From positions 64,001 through 128,000 of IMG/VR virus record IMGVR_UViG_3300028048_000066: a stretch of DNA of 64,000 nt; one strand, given 5' to 3'. The notes below the pieces were generated by a model. The model was not told the origin of the DNA. It saw only the letters and a program-made list of their open reading frames with translations, and did not search any database. This DNA comes from a virus (taxonomy: Duplodnaviria > Caudoviricetes). Shown piece after piece: positions 16,318 to 55,726 of this stretch. A program made the translations under genes and the position numbers. Numbering within the stretch: position 1 is the first letter of the stretch; each line of letters opens with the position of its first letter.

Positions 16318-16321
16318 CATA

Positions 16322-16440: not shown

Positions 16441-16462
16441 TTAGAAACTTATTAAAAAGTGC

Positions 16463-16491
16463 TTGACATTTCTATTTAAAAGTAGTATAAT
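16463..16491 (+). promoter_or_regulatory. sigmaA-type promoter
   Basis: TTGACA-17 nt-TATAAT. Confidence 0.85.
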
Positions 16492-16520
16492 AGTATAAGA
16501 AATAGATAGTGAGGTGTACT

Positions 16521-37510: not shown

Positions 37511-40500
37511 ATGAATTATATTTATGGACAATTAAATCAAAAAGTAGTAAAGATTGAATATGAAGGTATTTCAACAGATACATCTACTACAAGTGTAGAC
37601 AATAAAGGGTGTGCTATTGGTGTAGATGTAAGATGTGTGCCATATTCTTTACTTATAAATGACGAAGGAAGACAAACATCCTACAATGGAAGTAGTGAAG
37701 TTGCATTCTCTTTGCATAATTATACAGTTTCAAAGTTAGATGATGCAGGAGAGGGCAATGTTGCTGCATATGAACTCAAAAAAGACGGTGTAAAAATTGG
37801 AGATACTATTGAAATTCCAACACAAGCACCTATTACAAGTGTTTCATTAGATGAAGATGATGGACACTTCACTTTAATATTCACAACAGCAGATGATTCA
37901 TTTGAAGTAAGTGCAGATGACCTTATTATGAGTTGTGAAGGAAGTGAGTACATACTTGTAGACAGAGTAGAAGGAAGTAACACATATACAATATCATTAA
38001 ATATTGATGATTTAAAGAGTGAGTTAGATATTAGTGGTATTGAAGGTGACATTGATTCACTACAAGACAGAGTAGATATTTTAGAAAGAGATATAGCAAC
38101 AAAGCAAGATGCGTTAGAAGCAGGTGATAATATTTCTATCAGTGGAGGCGTTATAAGTGCTGTAGACACAACTTACAGTGCTGGTAATGGTTTATCATTA
38201 GATGGAACTCAATTTAGTGTAGACACGACTACAATCGCTACAAAGGGTGATGTAGATACAAAACAAGATGTATTATCAGAAGCACAACTCAATGCAGTCA
38301 ATAGTGGAATCACAACAGCAAAGAGAGAAGGATATGATGCTACAGTTACAACAGTAGGAACAATTACAACAACAACTTTACCTACAATTAACAATAGTAT
38401 TACATCTTTGGGCAACCAAATTGATGAAGTTAAAAATGACTTAGATACAGTAGAAGGTGACATTGAAGATGAAGTATCAGATAGACAAGATGCAGATGAT
38501 GTATTAAGTGGAAGAATTGATGATGCAGAAACAGCAATTGCAGGAAAACAAGATACATTAACAGCAGGTGCTAATATTACAATTGAGAATAATGAAATTA
38601 GTGCAACAGATACTACATATACAGCAGGTACAGGATTAGATTTAACTGGTACAGAGTTTAGTGTTGATGAAACAGTTATTGCTACAAAACAAGACTTAGA
38701 ATCAAAGCAAGACACATTAACACAAGCACAACAAGATGCAGTAGATAGTGGAATTACAGCAACCATATTAAGTGAAATGCAAAGTGATATTGCAGGTAAG
38801 CAAGATACTTTAACCTTTGATGCAGAACCAACAGAAGATAGTACAAATCCTGTAACAAGTGGTGGCGTATTTACTGCATTAGAAGGCAAACAAGACACAC
38901 TTACTGCTGGTGAAGGGATTACTATTGAAGGTAATGAAATCAGTGCAGAAGGAAAAGAATATTTTGCAGGAACTGGTTTATCACTTACTGGTGTAGATGA
39001 AGATACATTTGCAGTTGACACAGATGTAATTGCAACCAAAGAAGATTTATCTGGAAAGCAAGATACATTGGATGCAGGAGATAACATTATTATTAGTGGT
39101 AATGAAATCAGTGCAATTGATACAACTTATGAAGCAGGATTTGGTATTAAGATTGCAGATGACTCAGATGAAGATGAAATAAGTGCAATTAGTATTGATG
39201 AAGGCATTGTTGCTACAAAATTAGATTTAGAAGGAAAACAAGATGTATTAACTGCTGGAGATAACATTACAATTGAAGATGGTGTTATTAGTTCTAGTGG
39301 TAAGATTTATAGTGCAGGATATGGAATTGACCTTGTTGGTTACGATGATACATTCCAAATTGATACAGAGGTAGTTGCAACAAAGAATGATTTATCAGGA
39401 CTTGAAGGGGAAATTTCAGATATAGAGACAGCATTAGATGGTAAACAGGACACATTAACTCCAGAGCAATTAGCAGAATTAAACAGTGGTATTACAGAAC
39501 AAAAGGTTGCAGATTATGATGCACACATTAACAACCAAGTTATTCACTGCACACAAGAAGATAAAGATTTATGGGATAGTAATCATCTTGCACCAGAAGG
39601 TGAATTAAATATTGAGTTCAATGCTGATGTTCCATCTACAGTGGAAACAGCACCACTACAAAACATTTTAGTAGGAGATAAGAACTACAAGATTTACGGA
39701 AGTGGTGACTCTGGTGGTAGTTCTGGTGGTGGAGACAGTGTTATTACAAATGAAACAATATTACCAAGCAGTTTAACATATGCAAATCCAGGCGGTATGT
39801 ATGCAGTTAATTTAGAACCAGAACAAAAGACATATATTCAAGTTGGTGATGCGGTTAAGAATCTTTATTTTGATACTAGAACAACTCCTGATATTGCTAA
39901 ATTAGATTTCAAAGGTGCAGAATATACAACCCTTGTAAGATTTGTTTCTGAGGATAACTACGAATGGAGACAAGTATATACTTATTCATCAGAACCAGCA
40001 GAACCAAAGACTGGTGAATTGTGGTTAGATATTCAATATGATACTGATGAAGAAACTCATATAACAACAGTTACAAAGACATTGAAAAGATTCAGTGGAG
40101 ATATTTGGGCAGTAGTAGAATACACAACAGAACTACCACAAAATCCAGAAGTGGGTCAATATTATATTAGTAATACTAGCAGTAATGTATTTATTTATAC
40201 AACAGTGGTTAGAAACTTACTTGCATCCGCAGGTGGTATGTGGGGAGGTGCAACAATAAGATTTGCTTATGGAACAGAACCAGATGAATTTAAGTATTAT
40301 TTATTGAATGGTGTTATTTATTATTATGACAATGGTGCTTGGGTAAATACACATTATGTATTAGATGACTCAAACCCAGAAGAGGGACAACACTTCCTTA
40401 AAGCAGAACCAAGCAATAAATATACACTTAAGAAATATACAAACGGTGCTTGGTATACAATTTTCTCAGAAAAATCTATTACCTTGCGTGGTACAGATAT

Positions 40501-41491
40501 GAATACAACCTCTTACTATATGGGTTATGATGATGAAACCTCTATTGTTAGATATATTGGTAATAGTAGTTATACAATAGATGTCACAGGAGACCACTCA
40601 GGTCCAATACCAAATACAGCATATGATATTTATGAAATCCCATTTGATGTAGTAAGTGAAGCACCATCTAATATTGGACATTTATGGTGGGAGGAGGATA
40701 CATACTCATCTTTTATTAAAGGTTATGCTGAACTAAGTAGTATAGTGTACAGTTCTATTGACTTGTTAAATGAGGATATAAGCATTTCAGAATCAGAAGG
40801 TCGTATTATAAGAAACAACGGACAACGAGAGAGTGTTGTAGAAGTACCTGTTTACTTTACTCCAATGGGTTCAATTGGATTATTTACTGGTTGGTATTTC
40901 AAATCACTAAATTTAAATGCTGTTGGTGTTGGAACTGAACCTTTCACAGTAAATGTTGAAACTTCTTATAAGTTTAAGGTAGATTCCATACCACAAAATG
41001 TGTTTACAGATTCATTTGCTTATGAGTATTTTGTCCCATCAAGAACACAAGATTTATTCTTTACAACACAGGGTGGTAATGTAAAGAAAGAAGATGTTTA
41101 TGGCATATATACATATTTATCAACATTATTCTTATATAAATGTCTCGGTTTAATTTTACCAATTGACACACATACATATACAATAGAAACAAGTGATTGG
41201 GTAGCAGCAAGTTCAGATTATAGTCCGTTTACATATACATATACAACACCAATAATAATGAATGGACAAACAGTAGAAGATTTAACAATGTTCAAAACTA
41301 TTGAGATTGCACCACAACAAGCAGTTTTAATTGCAAAAACAGGAATTGCTATTGTAGATGTAGTAGATGTTGATGGCGATGCAAATGTTGTATTTGGTGT
41401 ATTAACACAACCAAGTGAAGCAATAGATGTTGTAGTATATAATCGTGGTATAATAGAAGACTTTGTTGGAATGCGTTATGATATGAATTAG
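37511..41491 (+). CDS. Long tail-fibre-like protein with KQD-initiated repeats
   Basis: Nine KQD(T/V/A)L modules and AG.GL.L.G..FSVD repeats; distinct aromatic C-terminal region. Confidence 0.75.
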   Translation: MNYIYGQLNQKVVKIEYEGISTDTSTTSVDNKGCAIGVDVRCVPYSLLINDEGRQTSYNGSSEVAFSLHNYTVSKLDDAGEGNVAAYELKKDGVKIGDTIEIPTQAPITSVSLDEDDGHFTLIFTTADDSFEVSADDLIMSCEGSEYILVDRVEGSNTYTISLNIDDLKSELDISGIEGDIDSLQDRVDILERDIATKQDALEAGDNISISGGVISAVDTTYSAGNGLSLDGTQFSVDTTTIATKGDVDTKQDVLSEAQLNAVNSGITTAKREGYDATVTTVGTITTTTLPTINNSITSLGNQIDEVKNDLDTVEGDIEDEVSDRQDADDVLSGRIDDAETAIAGKQDTLTAGANITIENNEISATDTTYTAGTGLDLTGTEFSVDETVIATKQDLESKQDTLTQAQQDAVDSGITATILSEMQSDIAGKQDTLTFDAEPTEDSTNPVTSGGVFTALEGKQDTLTAGEGITIEGNEISAEGKEYFAGTGLSLTGVDEDTFAVDTDVIATKEDLSGKQDTLDAGDNIIISGNEISAIDTTYEAGFGIKIADDSDEDEISAISIDEGIVATKLDLEGKQDVLTAGDNITIEDGVISSSGKIYSAGYGIDLVGYDDTFQIDTEVVATKNDLSGLEGEISDIETALDGKQDTLTPEQLAELNSGITEQKVADYDAHINNQVIHCTQEDKDLWDSNHLAPEGELNIEFNADVPSTVETAPLQNILVGDKNYKIYGSGDSGGSSGGGDSVITNETILPSSLTYANPGGMYAVNLEPEQKTYIQVGDAVKNLYFDTRTTPDIAKLDFKGAEYTTLVRFVSEDNYEWRQVYTYSSEPAEPKTGELWLDIQYDTDEETHITTVTKTLKRFSGDIWAVVEYTTELPQNPEVGQYYISNTSSNVFIYTTVVRNLLASAGGMWGGATIRFAYGTEPDEFKYYLLNGVIYYYDNGAWVNTHYVLDDSNPEEGQHFLKAEPSNKYTLKKYTNGAWYTIFSEKSITLRGTDMNTTSYYMGYDDETSIVRYIGNSSYTIDVTGDHSGPIPNTAYDIYEIPFDVVSEAPSNIGHLWWEEDTYSSFIKGYAELSSIVYSSIDLLNEDISISESEGRIIRNNGQRESVVEVPVYFTPMGSIGLFTGWYFKSLNLNAVGVGTEPFTVNVETSYKFKVDSIPQNVFTDSFAYEYFVPSRTQDLFFTTQGGNVKKEDVYGIYTYLSTLFLYKCLGLILPIDTHTYTIETSDWVAASSDYSPFTYTYTTPIIMNGQTVEDLTMFKTIEIAPQQAVLIAKTGIAIVDVVDVDGDANVVFGVLTQPSEAIDVVVYNRGIIEDFVGMRYDMN
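38102..39500 (+). repeat. Intragenic fibre repeat array
   Basis: Repeated KQDTLTAG.NITI..N.ISA.DTTY.AG.G and KQD.L...Q..AV.SGIT units. Confidence 0.8.
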
Positions 41492-41503
41492 TAAAGGAAG
41501 ATT

Positions 41504-42352
41504 ATGTCAAAAGTATTAAAATTAAATGGTGAAGTAGTCCATAAAGTAAATGGAAAATATGTGAAGAAAGTCAATGATGATTTTGTTCAATGTGGTGCTA
41601 TCACTATCCCTAAAGGAACAATTATAAATGTTGATTTCAATGGGGATGGTGAGGTTGAACCATATAGAGTTCTTGAATGCAAAATAACTAACACAGCAGT
41701 AGAATGTGAGTTGATGTGTATGTATGATTGGGCAAAATCTAAATATTATGAAGATGGAATTCACGCAACATTTAGTAATGGTGTCATAGGATTAAAATAT
41801 GAGGATTCTTTAGTAGATGAACAAGTTGGTTTATTCTATGACAGATTACTATATAAAGTAAAGCAATCCATTTTACCACAACATAAAGAGCAAGAAATGT
41901 GGGAGTATACTTATTTAGGAGATACACCAGGAACAATTGCGGAAGATGGATACTATGGCACAATCAATTACAGAGATAATGATTACTACAAATTAACAAA
42001 GCAAGAGGGTGTTTTAGATTTAGGTGAAAGAAAAGTATATTTACCATCAGTAGAAAAGATTATGCAATACTTAGGAAAAGAATATGGAGATATTACAACC
42101 TATGAAGAAGTATATGAAATGTTCTATGAAAGTGAAGAGATGGGAAATATCACAGATTCTGTTTGGTTAATGGATGCTTCATTTAGAGGAACACCAGAAG
42201 ATAACCAAAATAAGAATGCTATGTTCTTTGCAAATAGACAATATGGAAACCTAGCAAATTATCATTATCACAATGTATTTGGAGTAAGACCAATATTTGT
42301 AGTTGACTTATTAAAACTTATGGATGTTTATAATATGGTTATAGAGTTTTAG
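41504..42352 (+). CDS. DUF6273-like / C-type-lectin-fold protein
   Basis: VYLPSVE...VWL...A.F....G......N..GVRP C-terminal signature. Confidence 0.55.
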   Translation: MSKVLKLNGEVVHKVNGKYVKKVNDDFVQCGAITIPKGTIINVDFNGDGEVEPYRVLECKITNTAVECELMCMYDWAKSKYYEDGIHATFSNGVIGLKYEDSLVDEQVGLFYDRLLYKVKQSILPQHKEQEMWEYTYLGDTPGTIAEDGYYGTINYRDNDYYKLTKQEGVLDLGERKVYLPSVEKIMQYLGKEYGDITTYEEVYEMFYESEEMGNITDSVWLMDASFRGTPEDNQNKNAMFFANRQYGNLANYHYHNVFGVRPIFVVDLLKLMDVYNMVIEF

Positions 42353-42367
42353 TGCTAAATTAAATGA
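42353..42367 (+). promoter_or_regulatory. Putative phage late promoter
   Basis: TGCTAAATTAAATGA between genes. Confidence 0.7.
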
Positions 42368-42391
42368 GTAAAAACAAAGGAAAGAAAAGAA

Positions 42392-43399
42392 ATGGCAATA
42401 GATTATATTTATGGTAGTTTAGATGAATCAGTAGTTCCAGTATTTTATAATGGTAGTGAAACAAGCACTGCTATTACTACTGTTGACAATGATAAAAGAG
42501 TTATAAAAGTAGATGTAAAGAATAGTTCTAGTTATGAAGGTGGAGAAGGTATTGTTGTAAGTGACAATACTATATCTATTGATGATGAAGTAGTTGCAAC
42601 AAAAGAGGATGTAGCAAATGTTAGAACATACAAGACATTTAATAGTGGTTGGAATTTATCTGGAACAACACAAGAGTTTTGTCAAAGTGTTGAAGAAGAT
42701 ATACTAGCACCAGAAGGAACTGCATATTTAGGAACATTAAATTGTAAAGATTTACCTAATGATATGGTTCAAGCAGAAGCAATTGTAGAAATTATTTCAA
42801 GTGGTGCTAATGGTAAGTGCATTGATATTACTCTTACAAGTTTAGAAGTGTCACCTTATAGATGGACATACTCTTATGGTAGAGTTAATGGTAGTGTAGT
42901 TACTGTTGGTTGGAAAGGTAGTCAAGAAGAATTAGTTAGTGGAACGAATATTAAGACTATTAACGGTAGTTCAATATTAGGCAGTGGAGATTTAACTATT
43001 AGTGGTGGAACAACATTAAATTATTATACTTATAGTTTAGGAACTTCTTTAATTGGTAAAACAAGTAAAATAATAAATATATTAAAAAATGCAAAAGGGC
43101 GTATACTTGGTTATTTACGATTTAGAGTAAGTGAAACGCCTATTGTTGATATGATAGTTCATTTTAATAATGCTGAATATTATAATGATAGTTATGCAAA
43201 CAATATAAGATTTAGAGGTGTACATTATACACAAAGTGCATTATACCTATATGATATTTATTTAATCAATGGCGTAAATGAGGGTATATTTTCTAATTCG
43301 TGTTTAAAAATTGAAAATAATACAATAACAAGTGCATTAAATCTTGGTATGCAATTAGGGGGATATATTGCTTACTTTAATGATACACAATTACACTAA
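42392..43399 (+). CDS. Short fibre-like protein sharing its N-terminus with 37511..41491
   Basis: YIYG.L...V....Y.G..T.T..T.VDN....I.VDV; also the fibre motif LVSGTNIKTINGSSILGSGD. Confidence 0.7.
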   Translation: MAIDYIYGSLDESVVPVFYNGSETSTAITTVDNDKRVIKVDVKNSSSYEGGEGIVVSDNTISIDDEVVATKEDVANVRTYKTFNSGWNLSGTTQEFCQSVEEDILAPEGTAYLGTLNCKDLPNDMVQAEAIVEIISSGANGKCIDITLTSLEVSPYRWTYSYGRVNGSVVTVGWKGSQEELVSGTNIKTINGSSILGSGDLTISGGTTLNYYTYSLGTSLIGKTSKIINILKNAKGRILGYLRFRVSETPIVDMIVHFNNAEYYNDSYANNIRFRGVHYTQSALYLYDIYLINGVNEGIFSNSCLKIENNTITSALNLGMQLGGYIAYFNDTQLH

Positions 43400-43457
43400 T
43401 TATGAACGAAGCATTAGTAAAATTAGATACACAAATATAACGCAAAGGAGATAAATT

Positions 43458-43568
43458 ATGCACACAGCAAGAGAACTATTAGCATATATAGAGCAAAAGA
43501 TTAAAGAGCAATTAAAACAAATACAACAACCAGAAGAAGATAATGATAATTCTTCTGATGATGAATAA
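43458..43568 (+). CDS. 36-aa microprotein (not in track)
   Basis: AAGGAGA RBS; MHTARELLAYIEQKIKEQLKQIQQPEEDNDNSSDDE. Confidence 0.55.
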   Translation: MHTARELLAYIEQKIKEQLKQIQQPEEDNDNSSDDE

Positions 43569-43587
43569 TATAAGGAGAAAATAAACT

Positions 43588-44166
43588 ATGAGCAAAACAT
43601 TTATAGAAAGTATTATTCCTTTTATAACATCAATGAGAAAAGGAATTAGTGATGAAGGTGGTTCTACACCAAAGTTCATTAAGTTCAATAATGGTGATAA
43701 TTTCATTGATTTCCATTTTGATACAACTTCAACACCTACAAAAGATGACTTTGACCTAGTAACTATGGAAGGAGAATTATTTAGTGTAATTGCTGGTTTT
43801 GAATGGCATCAAAAAGATGGAAATATTAAATATGATGGATTTGCAGTTGAGGTTATACCAGAAGGAACAGAAATGGAAGGTGAAGTATTAAAAGGTGATT
43901 TTTTCACAATTATTGACTTTGAAGGTTATGGTATTTATTACAATGATATAGCAGCAGAATATATGAGTAAAGATGGTGAGGTGATAGAACCAGGTTGGAA
44001 AACAGATTCATTTAGATACTTTGCAAAAAACATAAGACAAAGTTTTGATTTAGATGAAGGGTGTTATGGTACAATGATTGATGCACTTGGTGGTATGGAT
44101 GCAAATTATGACCAAGAAGCAAATGGTAAAATATATGGTTTCCTAGATGGAGATATAAAACAATAA
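43588..44166 (+). CDS. Tagged family member 1 (N-terminal IIPFI tag + one FDTT/WNG-type module)
   Basis: Starts MSKTFIESIIPFITSMRKG. Confidence 0.75.
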   Translation: MSKTFIESIIPFITSMRKGISDEGGSTPKFIKFNNGDNFIDFHFDTTSTPTKDDFDLVTMEGELFSVIAGFEWHQKDGNIKYDGFAVEVIPEGTEMEGEVLKGDFFTIIDFEGYGIYYNDIAAEYMSKDGEVIEPGWKTDSFRYFAKNIRQSFDLDEGCYGTMIDALGGMDANYDQEANGKIYGFLDGDIKQ

Positions 44167-44195
44167 GAAAATAATTTAATGAAGGAGATATAATT

Positions 44196-44339
44196 ATGAC
44201 AAAAGAAGAATTTGTAAAAGCATTTAGAGAAAAATTAAGAAAGGCACTAGAAGAGCAAAACAAAAAGAATGCACAAGTAGTTGAAGAAGCACCTAAAAAG
44301 AAAAGGGGAAGACCATCAAAGAAAGTAGAGGAGAAATAA
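44196..44339 (+). CDS. 47-aa AT-hook microprotein (not in track)
   Basis: AAGGAGA RBS; contains PKKKRGRPSKK. Confidence 0.6.
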   Translation: MTKEEFVKAFREKLRKALEEQNKKNAQVVEEAPKKKRGRPSKKVEEK

Positions 44340-44340
44340 G

Positions 44341-45303
44341 ATGAGTAAAAGTTTTATTGAAAAGTTAATACCATTCATTACAAATATGAGAGTAGGTGAA
44401 GGTGAAGATGCACCAGTAACAAGTTTGACACCATTTTCAGTTGGTCAAATAATTAAAGGTTTTGATTTTGGTAATGTTAAGAATGGAGATGTAAGTGCTG
44501 AATTAGATAACTTCTTACTTACACAATTACCTGATTTTGGTGGAAGCGAGTCTACAATTGGCTATTTTATGATTGGAGATGGTGATATTTCATTGATGGG
44601 TTATAATATGAACAATATACAAGAAGGTCTTGGTATTATATTTACTTCTGATAATAATTTGACTGTGTTATATGCAACACAAGATTTTGATATTGAGGGC
44701 ACAAGTGGTACAAAAGGTTTCCAAAACTTAACAGGTGGCAAGTATAATTTAGATTATAGTTCAACTATTGTTGAAGTTAGTGAAAATATTGAAGATACAT
44801 CTTGGAATGGAACACTTATTGGTGCTATTGAAGAAGAACCAGGTCCAGAACCACCAACACCTCCAACACCAGGGGATTTAACACCATTTGAATCAGGTGG
44901 AAGTTTACACGCAGGAGATAAACTTGTAGTAGATTTAAGTGCATCTAATAGTGATATTGTAAATTATTTATCAACATTAACATATGACCCACAATCATAT
45001 AGTTGCTTATTATTAAATACAACAAATGAACCAGGACATTCAGGTCAATCATTTAGAATTGCAGCAATGCAATTTGGTACTCAGTATGTTATTATGGGAA
45101 CAGATGCAACAGGTTACCCATCATCTTTCTGGGGTTATGATACAAGCACAGGTGAAGGTGGTTGGCAATTAAAAGAATTTGATGGAGATAATTATTACAC
45201 AATTAAAGTTGATGGTGGTGTAGAATATTATTCAAATATTGTGCTAAATGATACAGCAGAAGGATGGAATGGTGTATTCATTGGCGTAGAAAAAGGAGAA
45301 TAA
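44341..45303 (+). CDS. Tagged family member 2 (tag + two modules joined by a Pro/Thr linker)
   Basis: Starts MSKSFIEKLIPFITNMRVG; modules end WNGTLIG and WNGVFIG. Confidence 0.75.
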   Translation: MSKSFIEKLIPFITNMRVGEGEDAPVTSLTPFSVGQIIKGFDFGNVKNGDVSAELDNFLLTQLPDFGGSESTIGYFMIGDGDISLMGYNMNNIQEGLGIIFTSDNNLTVLYATQDFDIEGTSGTKGFQNLTGGKYNLDYSSTIVEVSENIEDTSWNGTLIGAIEEEPGPEPPTPPTPGDLTPFESGGSLHAGDKLVVDLSASNSDIVNYLSTLTYDPQSYSCLLLNTTNEPGHSGQSFRIAAMQFGTQYVIMGTDATGYPSSFWGYDTSTGEGGWQLKEFDGDNYYTIKVDGGVEYYSNIVLNDTAEGWNGVFIGVEKGE

Positions 45304-45304
45304 G

Positions 45305-45835
45305 ATGGAAAAAAGTTACATACAAAAAATTATACCTTTCATAGATAATATGAGAGTACAAAGTGAAGGTGGAGAGCCAACACCAGGCAAAGAAGGAACA
45401 CCATTTGAGGTAGGTCAAGTTTATAATTATGCTTATTATAATACAGAATTGTCTTATACACAAATCAATTCTATTTTAGAAAATCTTAATTATGATATTG
45501 GTGATGAGGATTTCAAAATTGCTCAAATTATAATTGATAATGAAGAGAAACCAACTGATTATTTTTCATTAACTGCTTGTAGATTAGATAAATCAATGTT
45601 TGACCCAGAAGCAACTGGTTATGTATATGGGTTTTTAGCAGACAATGATGCTGGTAGTGTTGTAGATGGTTTCATATATATGAGTGAAACACTAGATGTT
45701 GAAGGCACTATAGTTGAACAAGGTTGGCATACAACAACACCAGGACAAATTACATTATCCGATAGAGCAATAGTTGAAGTAAAGAATTGGGATAAAGTAA
45801 ATACAATATTTAGTTCAACACCATTTGAAGAATAA
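45305..45835 (+). CDS. Tagged family member 3 (tag + one divergent module)
   Basis: Starts MEKSYIQKIIPFIDNMRVQ. Confidence 0.75.
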   Translation: MEKSYIQKIIPFIDNMRVQSEGGEPTPGKEGTPFEVGQVYNYAYYNTELSYTQINSILENLNYDIGDEDFKIAQIIIDNEEKPTDYFSLTACRLDKSMFDPEATGYVYGFLADNDAGSVVDGFIYMSETLDVEGTIVEQGWHTTTPGQITLSDRAIVEVKNWDKVNTIFSSTPFEE

Positions 45836-45845
45836 GGAGAAAAAT

Positions 45846-47132
45846 ATGGAAAAGACATTTTTAGAGAGTATAATCCCTTTCATTACTAATATGAGAAAGG
45901 GTGTAAGTGAAGACCAACCAATAGTTAGTTTAATTAAGTTTAAGGGTGGAGATACATTTAAGGATTTCCACTTTGATACAACAAAAACACCAGTAAAGGA
46001 TGATTTTGATAATTGGACAGATTCAGATTTTGGTTCATATTCTTTAATGTGTGGTTTTGATTGGTATTGTGAAGATGAAAAATCACACGAACCAGTGGAA
46101 CTAGACACAATGATTATGGCATATTTCTTCCCAAAAGGTATGCCTATGGGTGAAGGTGTAGTAGTAGAGCAAGACTCGTTTGGTATTATATATGGTGCTG
46201 GTTATCCAATTTATTGTGATGAAGGTATGGCACAGGTGTTATCGCTTATGATGGGTGGAGAAGTCCCAGTTGGTTGGGCATCTGATTCAATGAAGAACGG
46301 ATATACATCTCAATATTATTTACAAGAAAATGCTTATGGACATCTTTGGAATCAAGGAACAGAAGGTGTAGATTATAATAAAGATTGGAATGGAAAGTTT
46401 ATTGGATTCAAAGAAGAAGACTATTATGAACCTGGTCCAGCACCAACAACATATACTATCACAACAAATAGTATAGACAACACAACAATTTCAGGTGAAG
46501 GGACATATGAAGAAGGAACAGATGTTGTAGTTTCTATTCAAGCAAATAATGGATACAGTTTTGTAGGCACACCAACTGCAACAGAAAACGGTGAAGCACT
46601 TGAATTAACAAATGTTGAAGGTGTATATTCAGCAACAATTACAGTTAATCAAAATGTTTCAATAGAGTTTACAGCAACAGTAGAAGAGCAACCAACACCT
46701 ATTACAATCTTACCTTTATATAATGGATTAACTTTACATAATAGCGATAAGTTAGCAGTAGATACAACAAAAGGTGATGAGTTTGCATCTTATTTAGGAA
46801 CACTTGCATATTCAGAAAGTAGATATACTCTAATGACATCACAATATCAAGGTCAACAAGTTAGACTAATGAGAGCAAGACAAGGAGATAACCCAGGTGA
46901 ATATTTTGTAATTATTGGAAATAAACCAATTTACGCAACATATACAGGAAGTTGGAATGGTTGGATGGATGGTGTAGAATATGATGTATCATTCACAGAA
47001 GGTTTCAATAATGTGGAAAATGGTTATTATGCAGTAGACCTTTCAATATTCAGTACTGATTATCAAGATATTTTAGCAATTACAGATACAGACCCAGCAA
47101 CTTGGAATGGTGTTATTATAGGAACATATTAA
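45846..47132 (+). CDS. Tagged family member 4 (tag + module + Ig/B-repeat-like domain + module)
   Basis: ATG 45846 after AAGGAGA; starts MEKTFLESIIPFITNMRKG; central TYTIT...GEGTYEEGTDV...ANNGYSF. Confidence 0.75.
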   Translation: MEKTFLESIIPFITNMRKGVSEDQPIVSLIKFKGGDTFKDFHFDTTKTPVKDDFDNWTDSDFGSYSLMCGFDWYCEDEKSHEPVELDTMIMAYFFPKGMPMGEGVVVEQDSFGIIYGAGYPIYCDEGMAQVLSLMMGGEVPVGWASDSMKNGYTSQYYLQENAYGHLWNQGTEGVDYNKDWNGKFIGFKEEDYYEPGPAPTTYTITTNSIDNTTISGEGTYEEGTDVVVSIQANNGYSFVGTPTATENGEALELTNVEGVYSATITVNQNVSIEFTATVEEQPTPITILPLYNGLTLHNSDKLAVDTTKGDEFASYLGTLAYSESRYTLMTSQYQGQQVRLMRARQGDNPGEYFVIIGNKPIYATYTGSWNGWMDGVEYDVSFTEGFNNVENGYYAVDLSIFSTDYQDILAITDTDPATWNGVIIGTY

Positions 47133-47215
47133 AAATGTATGGACTTATTACATTGATTATGATAGGTGTTACTTGTGTGTGCATACTAATTGCACTATCA
47201 AAATAACACACACTT

Positions 47216-47251
47216 AAAATAAAAGTTGTCCTAGCGATAACTTTTATTTTT
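47216..47251 (+). terminator. Intrinsic terminator
   Basis: AAAATAAAAGTTGTC/GATAACTTTTATTTT stem. Confidence 0.75.
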
Positions 47252-47274
47252 ATGCATTTAGTGTTATATTTTAA

Positions 47275-47289
47275 TGCTAAATTAAATGA
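47275..47289 (+). promoter_or_regulatory. Putative phage late promoter
   Basis: TGCTAAATTAAATGA after a terminator. Confidence 0.7.
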
Positions 47290-47314
47290 TAAAGAAATAT
47301 TAGGAGAAAGGCAG

Positions 47315-47710
47315 ATGATACAACATATTGACCCAATATTAAATCCAGATAATAGGAGAAAACCTTTAGATATAAACATAGAGGATATAATAGTCGGTGG
47401 AACAACAATTCACACTTTTGAAATTCCTCTAAATATTATCACTGATGTTTTATCCCTTGATATTCTCTATGGATATGGAATTGATGTTGTTATAGATAAA
47501 ACACTTAATGATTATCCTAGTGTTAGTTATACAGTTAAAGATGGGGTTACAAGTTTAAAATGTGTGTTAAGTCCAGAAGATACAATTAAGTTTAAAGATT
47601 GGTATAGAGATGCTACAGTTCAATTAAAATTTGTTATGTTTGATGGTGGCACGACAGATTATAGTGACATTTATTATTTAAGGGTATTGAAGACATTAGA
47701 TAATAACTAA
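47315..47710 (+). CDS. BppU-N-like structural protein
   Basis: GTT.HTF.IP...LSPEDT..F......VQL pattern; ATG 47315 after AGGAG. Confidence 0.5.
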   Translation: MIQHIDPILNPDNRRKPLDINIEDIIVGGTTIHTFEIPLNIITDVLSLDILYGYGIDVVIDKTLNDYPSVSYTVKDGVTSLKCVLSPEDTIKFKDWYRDATVQLKFVMFDGGTTDYSDIYYLRVLKTLDNN

Positions 47711-47724
47711 AGAGGTATAGAGTT

Positions 47725-48549
47725 ATGGCAATAAAAGTTAATATCAAAGGAAACTCAACTATACCTGTTGATATGTCAACCAATAATACAAACATTGAGA
47801 TGACTAATAACTGTGAAGTAGCACATAAGATACTTCATAGTGAAATCGTTGCAGAAACACATAGAGCAACTGCAAGAGAAGATGAACTAGATAGAGAAAT
47901 ACACACAAAACAAAATCTTGGGTATATTAAGTTAGATAAATACTTAATGAACCCAGATTGTGGTGTAATTACTGATAGAGATGACTTATTTCAATTAAAC
48001 TCTTATCTAGTAAATAAAGTGTCAGTCAATAATGATATTTATTATCTAACAGTATCAGACAATATAGATTTGGTTTATTTTTGTACAAGTGTATTAGCAA
48101 CTAAAAACCAAATAACTGTTAAAAGAGCAACAGGACAATTTCAAGTAACAGAAGTAGAAGTAGGAACAACTTTCCACAACTTACTTCATAACCTAGATTA
48201 TTTAAGTAGTGGGCATACAGGGTTTGCAGGAATTGAGTTTGGAACAACAGCACAATGGAATAGTAGGCCAGATTATAGGCCAGTAGAAGGTATGATAGTT
48301 GTTTATACTGATTATGCAAAGGATAGTCAAGGAAAAGATGTGTATGGTATAAAGGTTGGAGATGGTAATGCTTATCTCAAAGACAAAGGTTTTATTGCAG
48401 GAAATATAGCAGATATATTAAGAGAGCATATAAACAATGAAGTAATACACATAACAGAAGCAGAAAGACAAAGATGGGATAATAAAATAAATCTTGAAAA
48501 ACCTACAACACCAGGTATGGAAGATTTATTGATATTTAATAGAAATTAA
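47725..48549 (+). CDS. Fibre-associated protein with Mtd_N/hyaluronidase-N-like motif
   Basis: TTAQWN...P.EGMIVVY...IKVGDGNAYL; HINNEVIHITEAER..W. Confidence 0.55.
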   Translation: MAIKVNIKGNSTIPVDMSTNNTNIEMTNNCEVAHKILHSEIVAETHRATAREDELDREIHTKQNLGYIKLDKYLMNPDCGVITDRDDLFQLNSYLVNKVSVNNDIYYLTVSDNIDLVYFCTSVLATKNQITVKRATGQFQVTEVEVGTTFHNLLHNLDYLSSGHTGFAGIEFGTTAQWNSRPDYRPVEGMIVVYTDYAKDSQGKDVYGIKVGDGNAYLKDKGFIAGNIADILREHINNEVIHITEAERQRWDNKINLEKPTTPGMEDLLIFNRN

Positions 48550-48579
48550 AAGATAAAAGTAAAAGGAGATAAAAAATTT

Positions 48580-49908
48580 ATGGCAATTTATACAGACTTA
48601 TCACAATTAGGTAGAGTCCAATTACCAGGTGGAACTACCAAATATGAACTTGTAGATGTAGATGGTCGTTTGATGTTAGCACCTGAATATAGCACTACTG
48701 CATCTTACAGTGTAGGTGACCACATAAGATATGATGGTTCACCTTATGGTTGTAATCTTTATAGAGCAAAAGTAGATATTCCAGCACCAGCAGGAGCATT
48801 TGATGCAACAAAATGGGACAATGTAACAGTTGATAGCGAAATTAGAAGATTAGAAGGTATAATGGCAGGTGGTGTTCATTACAGAGGAAAAACCACAACA
48901 GTATTATATGACGGTGCAACAACAAATCCAATTACAATAAATGGAGCATCTTACACAGCAGAAAGTGGAGATTTAGTATTATTAGATTTAACAAGTGCAA
49001 GTGTTGTAGTAACTTATGCAACAAACACTGCTTATGCAATTCATACATACATTAAGGATGGTGCTTTATATTATATCACAACTGATGCTATTACTGCAAT
49101 AGAAAATACTTCTATTGATGCAATTTCAAGTAAAATAGACCAACTTAAAAATGAACCAGAGTTTTTATTTGATGGAACAAGTTGGGCAGTATTGGGTTCA
49201 ATTAGCGAAGGTCTTGGTGATTTAGCATATAAAGATAGTGCAAGTGGTCCATACACAAGACCAACAGGCAGTGGTTCAGTAACTATTAAGAACTATACAG
49301 AAACAACAAAGTATTTAGTAAGAACAACTATTACAGGAACAAATGGAACAGATAGTGCTACATTAGTAAGTGGTGGTTCTTCAAAGAATCAATGGAAACA
49401 AGATTCAACAAACCCAACAGTTGTTTATGGAACAGCAGATGTAGGCACAGCAGTTACTTACGGAACAGCAAACCCAGGAACAGCAGTAACAGGTGTTGCC
49501 CAAGTAGACTCTCAAAAATCATTTGATACAGATGGTGCAAAAGTTGTTGGTGTAGAAGGGGACTGTTTAGTATTTGATTATGCTACAAAAGGAAATATCT
49601 ATGGAGTTAAAGATGCAACAGGTGTTTCAATTACACCAGCAGTTGCTTCAAATACAACACTAACACCAGCAAAGGCAGCAGATTCTACAAGAACAATAAA
49701 CAACCTTGTATCAGATGGAACACTCACTGGTTCATATACATTAACTGATAAGACATTAGCAAAAGTAGCAAGTTCAGCAACTTATGTAGCAACAGGTGCA
49801 GTTGGTGATAGTGCAGATGGTAATGCAGTTCTTACAGCACTCACACCAGGAACAGAAAGTGCAACAGTCACAGTTGGAACAGAATCAGCAACAGTTACAG
49901 TTAAATAG
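48580..49908 (+). CDS. Thr/Ala/Gly-rich virion fibre/decoration protein with possible carbohydrate-binding repeats
   Basis: YSTTASYSVGDHIRYDG..YRAK (CBM12-like), GGVHYRGKTTT, FDGTSW. Confidence 0.6.
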   Translation: MAIYTDLSQLGRVQLPGGTTKYELVDVDGRLMLAPEYSTTASYSVGDHIRYDGSPYGCNLYRAKVDIPAPAGAFDATKWDNVTVDSEIRRLEGIMAGGVHYRGKTTTVLYDGATTNPITINGASYTAESGDLVLLDLTSASVVVTYATNTAYAIHTYIKDGALYYITTDAITAIENTSIDAISSKIDQLKNEPEFLFDGTSWAVLGSISEGLGDLAYKDSASGPYTRPTGSGSVTIKNYTETTKYLVRTTITGTNGTDSATLVSGGSSKNQWKQDSTNPTVVYGTADVGTAVTYGTANPGTAVTGVAQVDSQKSFDTDGAKVVGVEGDCLVFDYATKGNIYGVKDATGVSITPAVASNTTLTPAKAADSTRTINNLVSDGTLTGSYTLTDKTLAKVASSATYVATGAVGDSADGNAVLTALTPGTESATVTVGTESATVTVK

Positions 49909-49933
49909 TGTCATAAATATAAATATAAAAAAT

Positions 49934-49960
49934 AAAGAGAGTTGAAATATACTCTCTTTT
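49934..49960 (+). terminator. Intrinsic terminator
   Basis: AAAGAGAGT/ACTCTCTTT stem plus T tract. Confidence 0.75.
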
Positions 49961-49974
49961 ATGCTTTTAAAGAG

Positions 49975-49989
49975 TGCTAAATTAAATGA
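49975..49989 (+). promoter_or_regulatory. Putative phage late promoter
   Basis: TGCTAAATTAAATGA after a terminator. Confidence 0.7.
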
Positions 49990-50054
49990 GTTAAAAAGTA
50001 TCTTGAAAATTGATAGATACACCAAACCTTCTTGAAAGTGATAGGAGAAAGCAA

Positions 50055-50264
50055 ATGAGAAAGTCTAGTGCTATTGTTAAAGTAGATAGTGCAGAGAATT
50101 GGGAAAAAGCAAAGAACTATATTCCTGATAATTTTACTATAATAGTTTATGAGTTTGAAGACAACTCTCCTATGGTAAAAATTGGTGATGGTATTCATAA
50201 TGTAAATGAACTACCTTTCCTTTCAAGAAGACAAGAAGTAAAGGAAGACACACTGATTTTATAA
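50055..50264 (+). CDS. Small Mtd_N-like fibre-anchor protein
   Basis: DSAENW...YIP...KIGDG...VNELPF; ATG 50055 after AGGAG. Confidence 0.55.
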   Translation: MRKSSAIVKVDSAENWEKAKNYIPDNFTIIVYEFEDNSPMVKIGDGIHNVNELPFLSRRQEVKEDTLIL

Positions 50265-50280
50265 TAGGAGATTTTTTAAT

Positions 50281-53142
50281 ATGTCATTACCAGTAGGAAA
50301 CATTAAGAGCATTCAAACACCAGATACTGTTAATCACGAGATTATACCTAGAAGATTAAAGGGTAGTGATTTTAGGTATGCTTTTGAATTAAACCAAACA
50401 TTAAAGTGTAGAAAAGTAAGAATCTATTTTGATACAAACTATGAAACACAATTAGGTACTTATTTAGCAGGACTTACTTACGATTCAAGTAATCCTCTAG
50501 GTGTTCCTATTTGTAATTTGATGACAATAACAAACAGTAATTACCCATCAAGTCCTAGTTATTATTTAGTAGCGGTTGATTTAACATCTGCAAGTATGGG
50601 TTATTGTTTAGCAACATTTGATGATTATTCAGCAGGAAGTCAATATCATTTAACAGTTAGATATGCAACTGCAAATGGTAGTGGTTATGGTATGACTTGG
50701 ACACAGGGTTATAATAATCTTGATGCAAGTAATGGTTTTGACTTTGTTAGTGAAGATGCTGCTGATTGTACAGTTGCTTTCTTAAATAATACTTCAACAA
50801 CTTGGAATGGTGCTTATATTTATCCAGATGCTGGTAGGTTAGTATCTGCTGGAACAGAGTTAGAAGTTAAATTACCACCTATAAAACAAGAATCAGTTTT
50901 GGCATTACAAAGTGATTTAGAAGATTTTGTAAAAGAAGATGATTTAGCAGATGTTGCTTTAAGTGGAAGTTATAATGACTTAACTAATAAACCAACAATA
51001 GTTAGTGATGTTAAAGTAAACAATACAACAGTTGTTTCTAGTGGTGTTGCTAATATCATTACAAACACTGCTTATAACGCTTCTACAAATAAAATAGCAA
51101 CGATGGCAGATATTCCATCAGTTCCTATAACAAGTGTTAAAACATTAGATACAACTGCTACAACAGCACAATCAACAAGTGCAAGTGAAACAATTAGTGG
51201 AAGCGGTAGTATTACATTACATAAAGTTGCTAAAACAGGAACATATAGTGATTTAATTGGAAAACCAACAATACCAACAGTAAATAATAACACAATTACT
51301 TTAACACAAGGTGGAGTAACAAAAGGTTCATTTACACTTAACCAAAATAGTGATGCAACCATTTCATTAGATGGTGGTGGAGCAGCAGATTATAATGACT
51401 TAACAAATAAACCAATTACAAACATAGTAAGTGGAACAACATATAGTGAAGGTAATTATTATAGAAAATCTGTTGATACTTATCTTGAACCATTTATGGT
51501 AGGTAGAACACTATCACAAGGAGATAAGATTTACTTTGATACAACAAAGGGTGATGAAGTAAGTTCTTTATTAGCAACACTTCCATATAGTGGTGGTGCA
51601 TATAATTTACTTAGTATAGGTGATGGTAAAGGTATTGGTGCTGTTTCATTAAGTGGTTACAAACTTTTAGCAATGATAGATGATAGTGGTGGACAATATA
51701 TTGGTGGAACTATTATATTTTCAAATAGAGCAGGAACAGTAACAAGTGGATTAACAGTTACAGCAGGATGGCAAAACCTAGCAAGTGATGGTTCTTATAC
51801 TTGGGCAAAGAGTGGAACAAGTACAATACTTTCTTTAAGTGCTGATGACTGGAACGGTATAATTGTTGGAACAAGTTGGAATGATACAAAAGCATTAACC
51901 AAATATGAAATAGGTGATTTACCAGTAGATTTAAGTACAGATGGTATTTATGTAGATGTCTCAAAAGAAAAAGAATTAAGAGCATTTTTAGAGGGTTTAT
52001 CATATGAAGAGGGAGAACCAGCAGGATTTGCATTATGTCAATTATTACAAATAGGTGGTGATGGTGGTGTTTATGCAATTAGAGATGCTACAGGAGATAC
52101 AACAAAATATCTTACTTGTTTATTGATAGAAAGTTTTAGTGTATTCTATGCTACAGATAGTGGAACAGTAATGCCAGACACACCATATGAAACAACTTAT
52201 GGTAAAGGTTTCCAAAACTTAAATTCTGATAATTGTCATTTATATGCATCAGGACAATCGGGAACAGGCACTTTCTCAATTCGTGCTATAGTAAATAGTG
52301 AGTGGAATGGTAAGTTCTTTGGTAGTAATATCTCAAATAAAGAAGGTGCTATCTATAGATATGAAGGTGGGGAATTAAAGAGAGTATTAGTAGAAGGAGA
52401 TGCTGCCGCTTCTGGTGGTGGAAGTGTAGAAATTCCAGTAACAGATGTTCAAGTAAATGGAACATCAATATTAAGTAGTGGGGTGGCAAATTTAGTTACG
52501 GAAACTGCTTATGATGCTTCTTCTAATAAGATTGCTACAAAGAGTGATTTACATAGTCATAGTAACAAGAGTGTATTAGATAATATTGCAACACAAACAG
52601 CATATACATCAAAAGGAACATCAACAAAGGTAGCAACAATAACAACAAATACAAGTGGTCAAGTAACAAGTATTAGTGAAACAAGTATTGCATTCCCAGT
52701 TACAAGTGTTAATGGTTCTACTGGTGCTATTACTGGATTAGCAACAACAAGTCAATTGCCAGATATGACTAATGTTGCTTATAAGAATGTAAATAATAAT
52801 TTTACAACAGGACAAACTATTAGTGGAAATTGTAGAGCATCTGCATTCACGAGTGATAATTCAGGTTGTGTTATGAGTATAGGTAATGGTAATGAAATAT
52901 CATTTGGTATGAGTTCAGGTAATGCAATTTACTTTGGTTATGACAATAGAACGAGTAGCACAGCATTTCCAAATACTTATAACTTCGGAGCAGGAACAGG
53001 AAGTGCAGGGGCAACATCAGGCACTATTAACTGTGGTAATCTAAATGGAAGTAATATAGTAGCATATGGAACAGTTAAGGTTGGAAATACTGCACTATTA
53101 ACTTACAACTCTACAACACAGTCATTAGACTTTACATTCTAG
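50281..53142 (+). CDS. Tail fibre/receptor-binding protein with three FDTT/WNG modules
   Basis: Fibre motifs GSYNDLTNKP, VTDVQVNGTS, VTSVNG; modules ending WNGAY, WNGII, WNGKF. Confidence 0.75.
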   Translation: MSLPVGNIKSIQTPDTVNHEIIPRRLKGSDFRYAFELNQTLKCRKVRIYFDTNYETQLGTYLAGLTYDSSNPLGVPICNLMTITNSNYPSSPSYYLVAVDLTSASMGYCLATFDDYSAGSQYHLTVRYATANGSGYGMTWTQGYNNLDASNGFDFVSEDAADCTVAFLNNTSTTWNGAYIYPDAGRLVSAGTELEVKLPPIKQESVLALQSDLEDFVKEDDLADVALSGSYNDLTNKPTIVSDVKVNNTTVVSSGVANIITNTAYNASTNKIATMADIPSVPITSVKTLDTTATTAQSTSASETISGSGSITLHKVAKTGTYSDLIGKPTIPTVNNNTITLTQGGVTKGSFTLNQNSDATISLDGGGAADYNDLTNKPITNIVSGTTYSEGNYYRKSVDTYLEPFMVGRTLSQGDKIYFDTTKGDEVSSLLATLPYSGGAYNLLSIGDGKGIGAVSLSGYKLLAMIDDSGGQYIGGTIIFSNRAGTVTSGLTVTAGWQNLASDGSYTWAKSGTSTILSLSADDWNGIIVGTSWNDTKALTKYEIGDLPVDLSTDGIYVDVSKEKELRAFLEGLSYEEGEPAGFALCQLLQIGGDGGVYAIRDATGDTTKYLTCLLIESFSVFYATDSGTVMPDTPYETTYGKGFQNLNSDNCHLYASGQSGTGTFSIRAIVNSEWNGKFFGSNISNKEGAIYRYEGGELKRVLVEGDAAASGGGSVEIPVTDVQVNGTSILSSGVANLVTETAYDASSNKIATKSDLHSHSNKSVLDNIATQTAYTSKGTSTKVATITTNTSGQVTSISETSIAFPVTSVNGSTGAITGLATTSQLPDMTNVAYKNVNNNFTTGQTISGNCRASAFTSDNSGCVMSIGNGNEISFGMSSGNAIYFGYDNRTSSTAFPNTYNFGAGTGSAGATSGTINCGNLNGSNIVAYGTVKVGNTALLTYNSTTQSLDFTF

Positions 53143-53152
53143 GAGATAGTAT

Positions 53153-55726
53153 ATGTCATTAGTAGTATGGTTTCCACTAAATAACAATGTAAATAATCAA
53201 GGAACTACAACATTATCTATGACTTCTTTGAGTGGTTCTACCTTATCTAATACTGGTAAGGTAACTAGATATTGCTATGGAAATACAAGTTTTACTGGTG
53301 GTGGTTATGTATCATCTCAACAAATAACATTGGGACAAAATCAGTCTATATTTGCTTGGGTTAAGTTTTCAAGTTTAACAAGTGATAGTTCATTAGGTGG
53401 TTCTATTGCGGGTCAACATAGGTATCCAAGTAATGTAGGAATGGGAATGACATTAAAATATGTTTCATCTACTACTGGTTATTTGAGTGTTAATACTGGT
53501 AATGGAAGTGCGAGAACATTTAACACCTATTGTGGTTCAACACTATTACAAGCAAACACTTGGTATCATTTAGGTTATACTTATGATGGTTCAACAATTA
53601 GATTATATGTAAATGGTGTTTTAGATGGTTCACATAATTTTACTGGAATGTCAACACCAGCAGATTACTTTATGATAGGCTGTTGGTCTTTTAGTGGTTC
53701 TAGTGGTAACAGTGTTTATGGAAACTATAAATTAAATGGTTATATAAATGATTTAAGAGCATATAATCACACTTTATCAATAAAGGAGATTAAAGAACTA
53801 GCAAAAGGTTTAGCATTACATTATAAATTTAATTTTGAAGATTTATATGTTCCAGTAGAGTATATACAAAGTAGTGCATCAAGCACAAATTCTGGACAAT
53901 TTATAGATACTGGGTGGACTTATCCAAATACTGGTATTATTACATTAGAAAGTAAGTTTGCTTTTACAAAAGAAGAAAGTCAAAGAGCATTATGTGGAAT
54001 ACAAAAATCTGGGTATGGTCAACAATTATATGTTTATAGACCATCAAGTTCAACAATACAGACATATTTAGGTGGTGTAGGTGGAACAACCATAAACTTA
54101 CCTTCTACTGGACAAATAATTAACTTAAAACTAGAATTAAATGTTTCAACAACAACTGCAAGTTTTAGTGTAAATAATACAACTTTAACATATTCTTATA
54201 CAAATGATATTGCATCTAATTCATTAAGAATATTTAGTGGAAGGCAAGGAGATGTTATTGAAGATTGTTCTTCCCTTAAAATGTATAGTTTTAAGATATT
54301 AGAAAATGGGAATCCAGTTCGTGATTACATACCTTGCATAAGAAAGTGTGATAGTAAACCAGGATTATTTGATTTAGTAACCTATAATTTCTACACAAAC
54401 TCAGGTAGTGGAGAGTTTACTTATCCTTCAACAACAGTAGTAGCACAAGTTCCAGATGCAAGTGGTTATGGAAATAATGCAAGTTATAAATCTGCTTGTT
54501 CAACAACTGGAACAACTCCAATAGGTAGCACATCTTTGATATGTCCATCTACTGGTGTTTGTGTGCCTTATAATTTACCAATGAATCAATATACTATTGC
54601 TATGTGGTTTAAGTTGGGTGCAACAGGTAAAATGCCATTAGGTTCAAATACAACATCTTCTAATAATAGCAACTTTTATTGTTTTGGTGATAACTCTTGG
54701 AAGTATGTAACAAGTGCAGGTAGTCAAGAATATTATTATCAACATAACGGTGGTGCAGTAAGCACAAGTAACTATGTGTTCTGGGTTGCTACTTATGATG
54801 GAACTAATACAAAAATATATAGAAATGGTGTATATGAAGGAAGTCAAGCAGTTACAACTTCTGGTGCAACAGTAACTTTTAATAATATATCTATTGGTTT
54901 TGGTTTTAGTGATACAAGTTACTGGACTACAAATGAAGTAGCAGAGTTTAGATTATATGCAACAGCATTATCACAAGCAGATATAACTGAATTGTATAAA
55001 ACAAAAGAGAGTATAGATAAAAAAGGAAACCTATATTGTAATACTATAAATGAATTAGGAAATAGTATGAGTTTCAAAAAGAGTGGTATTATAGAGTGTA
55101 ATTCAATAACAGAGGGATTTAATAAGACATCACTACAAGGTGCTTATACTCAATTAGAGTATATCAAAACAAATGGAAATCAAATTATAAATACGGGTGT
55201 AGCAGATACATTACGAACAACAGTTGATTTAGATATGCAAGTTGACTCTGGTATAGGTCAATACTGGTATGGTTCAACTCAAAATAGTGGAAGTATGATG
55301 TATAATGGTTTATATAATATAACAGCATTAGAATATAATTGGTTGACAATTAGTAGAACTTCAAATAATAGATGTATTATGACTCAAAGATTAAATGGAA
55401 ATAATATTACAATTACTATGAATGGAGTAACTTCTACAGTAAGTGTAGGTAGCACTGCACCAACTGGTAATCTATATATATTCGGTTGTAATAATGGGAA
55501 TCGTTATTATGGCACAGGGATATTATGTAGATATTTTAGGATATATCAAGATAATGTTCTAGTAAGAGATTTTATACCAGTAAAAAGAAATAAAGATAAT
55601 GCAATAGGAATGCTAGATTTAGTTCACAACACTTTCTATGCAAATGCAGGAACAGGTTCATTCACTGCTGGTAATGAAATAAATAAAAAGTATGCAATAT
55701 ATACAAATAATATAATAGAAAATTAA
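53153..55726 (+). CDS. LamG/concanavalin-A-like lectin domain virion protein
   Basis: Two LamG-like domains (WYHLGYTYDG..IRLYVNG; ATYDG...IYRNG) and two EYI.S.G.Q.I(D/N)TG...RD(F/Y)IP domains. Confidence 0.8.
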   Translation: MSLVVWFPLNNNVNNQGTTTLSMTSLSGSTLSNTGKVTRYCYGNTSFTGGGYVSSQQITLGQNQSIFAWVKFSSLTSDSSLGGSIAGQHRYPSNVGMGMTLKYVSSTTGYLSVNTGNGSARTFNTYCGSTLLQANTWYHLGYTYDGSTIRLYVNGVLDGSHNFTGMSTPADYFMIGCWSFSGSSGNSVYGNYKLNGYINDLRAYNHTLSIKEIKELAKGLALHYKFNFEDLYVPVEYIQSSASSTNSGQFIDTGWTYPNTGIITLESKFAFTKEESQRALCGIQKSGYGQQLYVYRPSSSTIQTYLGGVGGTTINLPSTGQIINLKLELNVSTTTASFSVNNTTLTYSYTNDIASNSLRIFSGRQGDVIEDCSSLKMYSFKILENGNPVRDYIPCIRKCDSKPGLFDLVTYNFYTNSGSGEFTYPSTTVVAQVPDASGYGNNASYKSACSTTGTTPIGSTSLICPSTGVCVPYNLPMNQYTIAMWFKLGATGKMPLGSNTTSSNNSNFYCFGDNSWKYVTSAGSQEYYYQHNGGAVSTSNYVFWVATYDGTNTKIYRNGVYEGSQAVTTSGATVTFNNISIGFGFSDTSYWTTNEVAEFRLYATALSQADITELYKTKESIDKKGNLYCNTINELGNSMSFKKSGIIECNSITEGFNKTSLQGAYTQLEYIKTNGNQIINTGVADTLRTTVDLDMQVDSGIGQYWYGSTQNSGSMMYNGLYNITALEYNWLTISRTSNNRCIMTQRLNGNNITITMNGVTSTVSVGSTAPTGNLYIFGCNNGNRYYGTGILCRYFRIYQDNVLVRDFIPVKRNKDNAIGMLDLVHNTFYANAGTGSFTAGNEINKKYAIYTNNIIEN

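Follow-up and report, generated by a model that had tools for sequence, protein, structure and literature searches.

In tail fibre and tailspike anchors such as the N-domain of T7 gp17 and the N-terminal helix bundle of lactococcal TP901-1 BppL, the N-terminus is adapted to the phage and the C-terminus to the host, and recombination takes place between these parts. A phage-fitting N-terminus, an exchangeable cargo and recombination in the linker are the usual course of evolution in tail fibres and receptor-binding proteins (RBPs). N-terminal docking peptides of 7 and 11 residues were described in K1-5, K1E and SP6; the KP32, KP34, Menlow and PhiK64-1 groups have "conserved peptides"; it was shown by engineering that the conserved peptides of secondary RBPs bind the primary RBP's branching domain (PMC6872550, PMC13352976). 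The window analysed here, 64,000 nucleotides long, comprises bases 64001-128000 of the complete 148,163-bp virus record IMGVR_UViG_3300028048_000066 (Caudoviricetes), which has direct terminal repeats. It contains four neighbouring genes (g1 to g4) whose proteins begin with a similar short peptide, here called the tag, ahead of diverged cargo; a fifth such gene (g5) is located elsewhere in the same genome. By analogy with the systems above and from the sequence comparisons presented below, the tag may be an autonomous docking element which mounts accessory proteins, named knob proteins after their cargo domain, on a common acceptor of the fibre or baseplate, a reading to which we give about equal weight for and against.

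The tag peptide and its five genes

The sequence-only reading of the window had reported four tagged open reading frames with products of 192, 320, 176 and 428 amino acids (aa). All four are present as given; the total for the genome is five, with g5 found outside the window. The G+C content is about 30% and the genes of the region lie on the + strand, g1-g4 being co-oriented with the fibre genes. Coordinates are window positions unless marked "genome" or given with a sequence or protein code (L..., P...), and the length of g4 is counted from the ATG that yields MEKTFLES.

43588..44166, + strand: g1, 192 aa; tag, linker and one knob module (43660-44163); isoelectric point (pI) 4.2
43588..43644, + strand: tag of g1, MSKTFIESIIPFITSMRKG
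44341..45303, + strand: g2, 320 aa; tag (44341-44397), linker and two knob modules (44428-44838, 44878-45300)
45305..45835, + strand: g3, 176 aa; tag (45305-45361), linker and one diverged knob module
45846..47132, + strand: g4, 428 aa; tag (45846-45902) and knob modules (45918-46445, 46707-47129)
about 46452-46706, + strand: possible immunoglobulin (Ig)-like spacer of g4; weak Flg_new_2 match, below cut-off
genome 134313-134819: g5, the fifth tagged gene, 168 aa; outside the window, about 24 kb downstream

The tag occupies the extreme N-terminus of these five small proteins and is 17-19 residues long. In g1-g4 it follows the pattern M-x-x-[ST]-[FY]-[ILV]-[EQ]-x-[IL]-[IT]-P-F-I-x-x-M-R, with M1, K3, I10, P11, F12, I13, M16 and R17 common to all, and a linker with many G, E, D and P residues comes next. 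When the entire 148-kb genome was scanned in all six frames, the motif was found only at the starts of g1-g4 and in g5, which argues against a chance likeness. Upstream of the tagged ATGs the DNA likeness is limited to the ribosome-binding site, and conservation starts at the ATG. Over the 17 tag codons the five paralogues have 42 synonymous and 52 non-synonymous codon differences, and invariant residues use varied codons (CCT/CCA, TTT/TTC, ATA/ATT/ATC, AGA/CGT). The conservation from the ATG on, together with the many synonymous codon changes, indicates that the tag peptide itself is under selection, as had been proposed from the differences in the DNA. The DNA upstream of the ATGs shows no such conservation, which ruled out a regulatory DNA element as the cause of the conserved tag, and recent gene conversion was ruled out by the number of synonymous differences in the tag codons.

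The tag had also been described as amphipathic and as not being a Sec signal. The first description applies only moderately: the helical hydrophobic moment averages 0.33-0.50, but 5-33% of shuffles equal it, so that the amphipathicity is not significant. The hydrophobic residues show their best periodicity at 100-110 degrees, and the mean hydrophobicity is about 0.1. The second description was borne out, as by inspection the tags do not resemble Sec, Tat or lipoprotein signals: the hydrophobic run is broken by E/Q, K/S and T/D/N/S residues, and neither an A-x-A nor an L-x-x-C site is present.

A tag-based scan of IMG/VR returned no relatives. Six matches to a degenerate tag pattern in JGI metagenomes were dismissed as chance matches, having in-frame stops and not lying at a protein start. 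DNA and protein searches of a cultured-phage collection gave no match to the tagged locus, and searches of Pfam and PHROGs gave no match over the cut-off for the proteins of g1-g4 and their neighbours. No cultured phage has a terminase more than 37% identical to the one encoded here.

The knob cargo and its exchange behind the tag

Iterated profile searches of the genome and a relative showed that nearly all the cargo modules are diverged copies of one domain of about 130-170 aa ending in WNGxxIG, the knob, with the pattern L.PF..G....FDT......L..L.Y ... Y.T ... GW.N ... WNG..IG. A jackhmmer search united the modules of g2, g4, g5, a 953-aa fibre and relatives, and g1 was joined to them via the N-terminal module of g4. 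The cargo of g3 aligns as a diverged knob which ends in WD..TIFSS, not in WNG..IG; cargo of this type, carried also by the relatives P0006, P0007 and P0010, was not recovered in the jackhmmer search for the knob. One copy is present in g1, g3 and g5, two are present in g2 (connected via a EPGPEPPTPPTP linker) and g4, and three in the 953-aa fibre. The tagged proteins, with one or two knobs each, are beta-rich and very acidic (pI about 4.1). The earlier view of shuffled cargo made up of different kinds of module had thus to be revised: cargos are indeed exchanged behind the tag, but the modules are all diverged copies of one knob family, and their diversity had been overstated since every tagged protein has the knob superfamily.

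50281..53142, + strand: long tail fibre of 953 aa with three in-line knobs (50398-50826, 51478-51879, 51916-52332), untagged

No entry of Pfam, PHROGs or the PDB sequence set matches the knob domain, its fold gave no match among solved structures, and the ESM Atlas returned weak, non-specific rows only. A profile search of 1.84 billion representatives yielded a family of 137 proteins of 106-2076 aa with up to 7 copies of the knob. Their N-termini fall into several classes, namely the tag and diverged tags, a fibre-type start (MSLP..IKKIQ.P..YEIIP, the same as that of the 953-aa protein), a domain of about 85 aa starting with MEFKNGY, other fibre-like starts and a few membrane anchors. P0026 has its N-terminus in common with the 953-aa fibre, continues with two knobs and matches tail-fibre PHROGs as well as the Peptidase_S74 chaperone domain. 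Judged by the fibre-type start and the domain matches of this protein, the knob is a component of genuine tail fibres. Direct fusion of the knob to a part of the baseplate apparently occurs too, since P0085 of another phage (1441 aa; compared with the 1204-aa protein at genome 31103), which is baseplate-J-like, has a knob near its C-terminus. An N-terminal helix of the membrane-anchor or signal-like type was seen in P0092, P0110, P0119, P0129, P0130, P0133 and P0140 as well as in L025:755-2053 and L025:2070-2285, the last two being anchor-type knob proteins which adjoin on a 2.3-kb contig.

An AlphaFold2 model of g5 based on a 34-row alignment has a mean predicted local distance difference test score (pLDDT) of 86 and a predicted template modelling score (pTM) of 0.78. 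The knob (residues 28-168) is modelled mostly with pLDDT >90, and residues 1-20 have values of about 50 and do not pack on the knob. In this monomer model the tag is therefore not an integral part of the fold of the first module, in agreement with the modular tag of the sequence-only reading.

From all sources, 33 distinct tag-linker-cargo junctions were collected. The core residues F, I and M are invariant in all 33, at a cargo identity of 11-40%; the core starts exactly 4 residues past the Met in 28 junctions and is internal in none. One 19-residue tag, that of g1, heads three different cargos in relatives, and another, identical in its first 17 residues, heads five. A tag-only profile run against proteins of 80-2000 aa, a search which the sequence-only reading had suggested for listing the cargos of the tag, gave tagged matches that all bear knob cargo, and two untagged matches were knob proteins too.

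Comparison with L008, a syntenic 28-kb relative with five tagged genes in the same place, localized the exchange. The DNA flanking the tagged cluster has 80-93% identity to that of the window, whereas within the cluster much of the homology shrinks to the islands 43418-43661, 44151-44425 and 45762-45913. Each of the first two consists of a microprotein gene, the next tag and its linker, and the third of the end of g3 with the tag and linker of g4. The islands stop within about 25 codons of each tagged start and the break falls at the cargo junction. In the case of 43418-43661, the island is 92.6% identical to L008 and the cargo downstream is replaced. The opposite arrangement was found in P0145, which bears the tag, and P0154, which belongs to another phage lineage and bears the 85-aa MEFKNGY domain: their cargos are 73% identical from the end of the linker on. 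The unpacked position in the model, the breakpoints between linker and cargo, the same tag on different cargos and the swap of the adaptor support the view that the tag is a separable unit, swappable like a plug, and agree with the earlier description of an exchangeable N-terminal peptide on a flexible linker. In the 114-kb phage of P0154, which comes from the same sample series, knob arrays stand on the domain of about 85 aa (L026:8001-10022 and 14884-16500), which two proteins share; this domain seems to be equivalent to the tag in function.

These data also bear on a different explanation, according to which the tag would be a short helix through which the knob proteins associate with themselves or with one another, and no separate acceptor would be involved. 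The spacing of the tag hydrophobics is helix-like, short helices appear in the tag with low confidence in both AlphaFold2 models (g4, single-sequence, pLDDT 35; g5), and fibre-associated proteins are commonly trimers. However, the central proline, kept in 26 of the 33 tags, is ill-suited to a coiled coil, and the amphipathicity does not stand out from shuffles. A fixed external partner fits better with a tag that is near-identical across paralogues and phages while the cargos diverged below 30%, and the replacement of the tag by a folded 85-aa domain in another lineage likewise speaks against self-association, which we consider improbable.

Proposed docking and the alternatives at the head and membrane

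The docking reading draws on the combination of a phage-fitting N-terminus, an exchangeable cargo and recombination at the linker, together with the precedent of docking by short peptides. A single conserved acceptor, part of the tail-fibre or baseplate apparatus, would receive the tag, and a changeable set of accessory knob proteins, probably ligand-binding, would thereby be mounted on the virion. The flexible G/E/D/P linker between tag and cargo is similar to those which join the knob modules, and recombination at this linker would exchange cargos and retain the plug that fits this phage. We infer the presence of the tagged proteins in the virion, the binding of a partner by the tag and the identity of this partner. 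A more far-reaching version, in which the 17-residue plug lets the five to seven knob proteins occupy, jointly or in competition, a repeated socket of the fibre apparatus, is put forward tentatively and seems to us rather doubtful. If it were true, the adhesins on each virion would be a mixed set open to quick re-assortment, and foreign domains could be mounted on this phage lineage with the plug as a minimal portable tag.

Several observations weigh against docking. The T4 gp9/10-like domain (PF07880) was not detected in the genome, and no solved relatives were found for the neighbouring proteins; a remote or different acceptor may be present. A T4-type head protease is present, which keeps a capsid-targeting role in play, and one slot of tagged genes, on the side of the holin, adjoins head genes and not fibres. 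In other searches of the genome, the Pfam sheath and Baseplate_J models were not detected, and sheath-like and baseplate-J-like N-termini were seen by eye only.

The head genes are of the T4 type, with Portal_T4 and Gp23 recognized in syntenic relatives and Peptidase_S77 at genome 139787-140278 (53 bits, over the cut-off). The sequence-only reading had named, beside docking, a targeting signal of the T4 kind. In that case the tag would attach to the scaffolding core, bring the proteins into the prohead and be cleaved off by the S77 protease, with the knobs internal and ejected. This is a real option in view of the T4-type portal, the protease and the gp23-like capsid protein of the phage. In T4, moreover, an N-terminal propeptide of 10-19 residues is the only part that the diverse internal proteins have in common (PMC9026906, PMC3012670). 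Some tags are followed by [IV]-x-E (G-V-S-E in g4, V-G-E in g2), and the fifth tagged copy is close to the head genes. The evidence from the junctions and the cargo nevertheless weakens this alternative. A motif [LIVM]-x-E within 12 residues after the tag is present in 13 of the 33 junctions and absent from g1, g3 and g5, and a cleavage site is thus not conserved. The cargo is the knob of real tail fibres, which is found also behind membrane anchors; the tagged proteins are multi-domain, beta-rich and have a pI of about 4.1; and the majority of their genes are located among fibre genes. Finally, the targeting signal of this phage is more plausibly another N-terminal peptide, one with L-E-E at its end. 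Taken together, targeting to the capsid appears to us quite unlikely.

The other peptide, N-[IL]-LFEGFK-[DN]-YYK-[RK]-LEE, heads two proteins of the genome, an 1125-aa polyprotein at genome 1635 and a 440-aa protein at genome 142858. The latter directly follows the capsid gene (L006:14858-16180), and the bodies of the two proteins are otherwise different. With its terminal L-x-E site this peptide fits the rule of targeting plus cleavage better than the tag and is a candidate capsid-targeting propeptide.

The position of the tagged genes was compared across the relatives. Four of the five tagged genes of this genome, and five of the seven carried by a 143-kb relative, lie among fibre genes, and in three relatives the tagged genes are within the fibre block with varying slots. 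The earlier statement that they are located between fibre genes holds for g1-g4; g5 is near holin and head genes. There, a conserved slot was found in four lineages: a tagged gene is flanked by the genes of a transmembrane coiled-coil protein and an LL-H-type holin, and the terminase, portal, protease and capsid genes come shortly downstream. In L006 the genes flanking the fifth tagged gene are at 5774-6307 (transmembrane coiled-coil) and 6852-7226 (LL-H-type holin, PF09682, 32 bits). The slot holds one or two tagged genes in the four lineages, which include L018, L019 and L022.

It is this holin-side slot alone that suggests a role at the capsid surface or at the membrane, with the tag anchoring the proteins outside the capsid as decoration, or on a membrane for a lysis-related function, and not as parts of the tail. 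The possible Ig-like spacer of g4 would be in line with such a role, Ig-like domains being frequent in capsid decoration proteins, as would the N-terminal membrane anchors on some members of the knob family. The fibre-block location of most tagged genes here and in the 143-kb relative argues against it, and by inspection the tag is too polar (mean hydrophobicity about 0.1), and also too short, to act as a membrane anchor or Sec signal. To our knowledge, decoration proteins have not been reported to bind via an N-terminal peptide of this kind. We regard anchoring at the capsid surface or membrane as very unlikely.

Neighbouring features and comparison with known systems

Two microprotein genes are located directly upstream of tagged genes.

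43458..43568, + strand: 36-aa microprotein, helix and acidic tail; directly upstream of g1
44196..44339, + strand: 47-aa microprotein, helix and basic KKKRGRPSKK tail; directly upstream of g2

The 47-aa microprotein has a weak AT-hook match below the curated cut-off and is kept in L008 (within the island 44151-44425). Both microproteins survive recombination with the downstream tag as one DNA island, and they may assist the tagged proteins as chaperones or as partners in assembly. In L008, microproteins are encoded at 6844-6954, 8544-8687 and 9849-9998, each directly upstream of a tagged gene; one of 49 aa is present in the relative only.

In the fibre block of the window, the 1326-aa fibre (37511-41491) and the 335-aa protein (42392-43399) have their N-termini in common (MNYIYGQLNQKVV.. 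and MAIDYIYGSLDESVV..) and constitute a second pair with a common N-terminal adaptor and different bodies. The 857-aa virion-protein-like gene at 53153-55726 has two stretches that match Laminin_G_3 (concanavalin-like lectin; E 3e-36), and the fibre block probably has one more binding protein in its product. Within 41000-50400 a single terminator-like hairpin is present, at 49934-49959 (two scan rows which represent one hairpin on both strands), 3' of a 442-aa fibre gene and 5' of a small gene at 50010 and the long fibre; none was found from 41000 to 49934, the region of the tagged genes. As to the late unit proposed in the sequence-only reading, the observations are this lack of hairpins and the co-orientation with the fibre genes. 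A promoter scan did not outperform shuffles.

If the tag is a docking plug, the locus would count as a large instance of the "conserved peptide" principle, one short tag being shared by five to seven accessory proteins in each genome, in a lineage remote from the Klebsiella and coliphage models and with a new domain family instead of a depolymerase as cargo. The minimal tag, the breakpoints at the linker and the natural swaps would provide a testable rule for the re-assortment of phage binding parts. The WNGxxIG knob, confidently modelled and without a structural relative, is a reasonable target for structure determination.

Compared with the targeting sequence of T4 IPI-III and Alt, the tag resembles it in that an N-terminal peptide (10-19 residues in T4) is the sole conserved part and that a T4-type head and an S77 protease are present. 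It differs in the cleavage motif (13/33), the tail-fibre cargo and the location among fibre genes, and in this genome another peptide fits that role better. The anchors of T7 gp17 and BppL likewise combine a phage-fitting N-terminus with an exchangeable remainder; however, they are folded and 30-150 residues long, whereas the tag has 17-19 residues, is predicted to be unstructured alone and occurs in five to seven paralogues per genome. From the branched RBP systems the tag differs in that its sequence is unrelated, that this phage is T4-headed and outside those groups, and that docking is here a proposal; no T4gp10-like branching domain was detected in the genome (PF07880). The cargo is a beta-helix depolymerase there and a small acidic knob here. 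The likeness to the branched RBP systems lies in the arrangement: in both, otherwise divergent proteins whose genes are neighbours among the tail genes begin with a short conserved peptide, each group of phages has its own peptide while the cargos are exchanged horizontally, and one phage can carry several such proteins.

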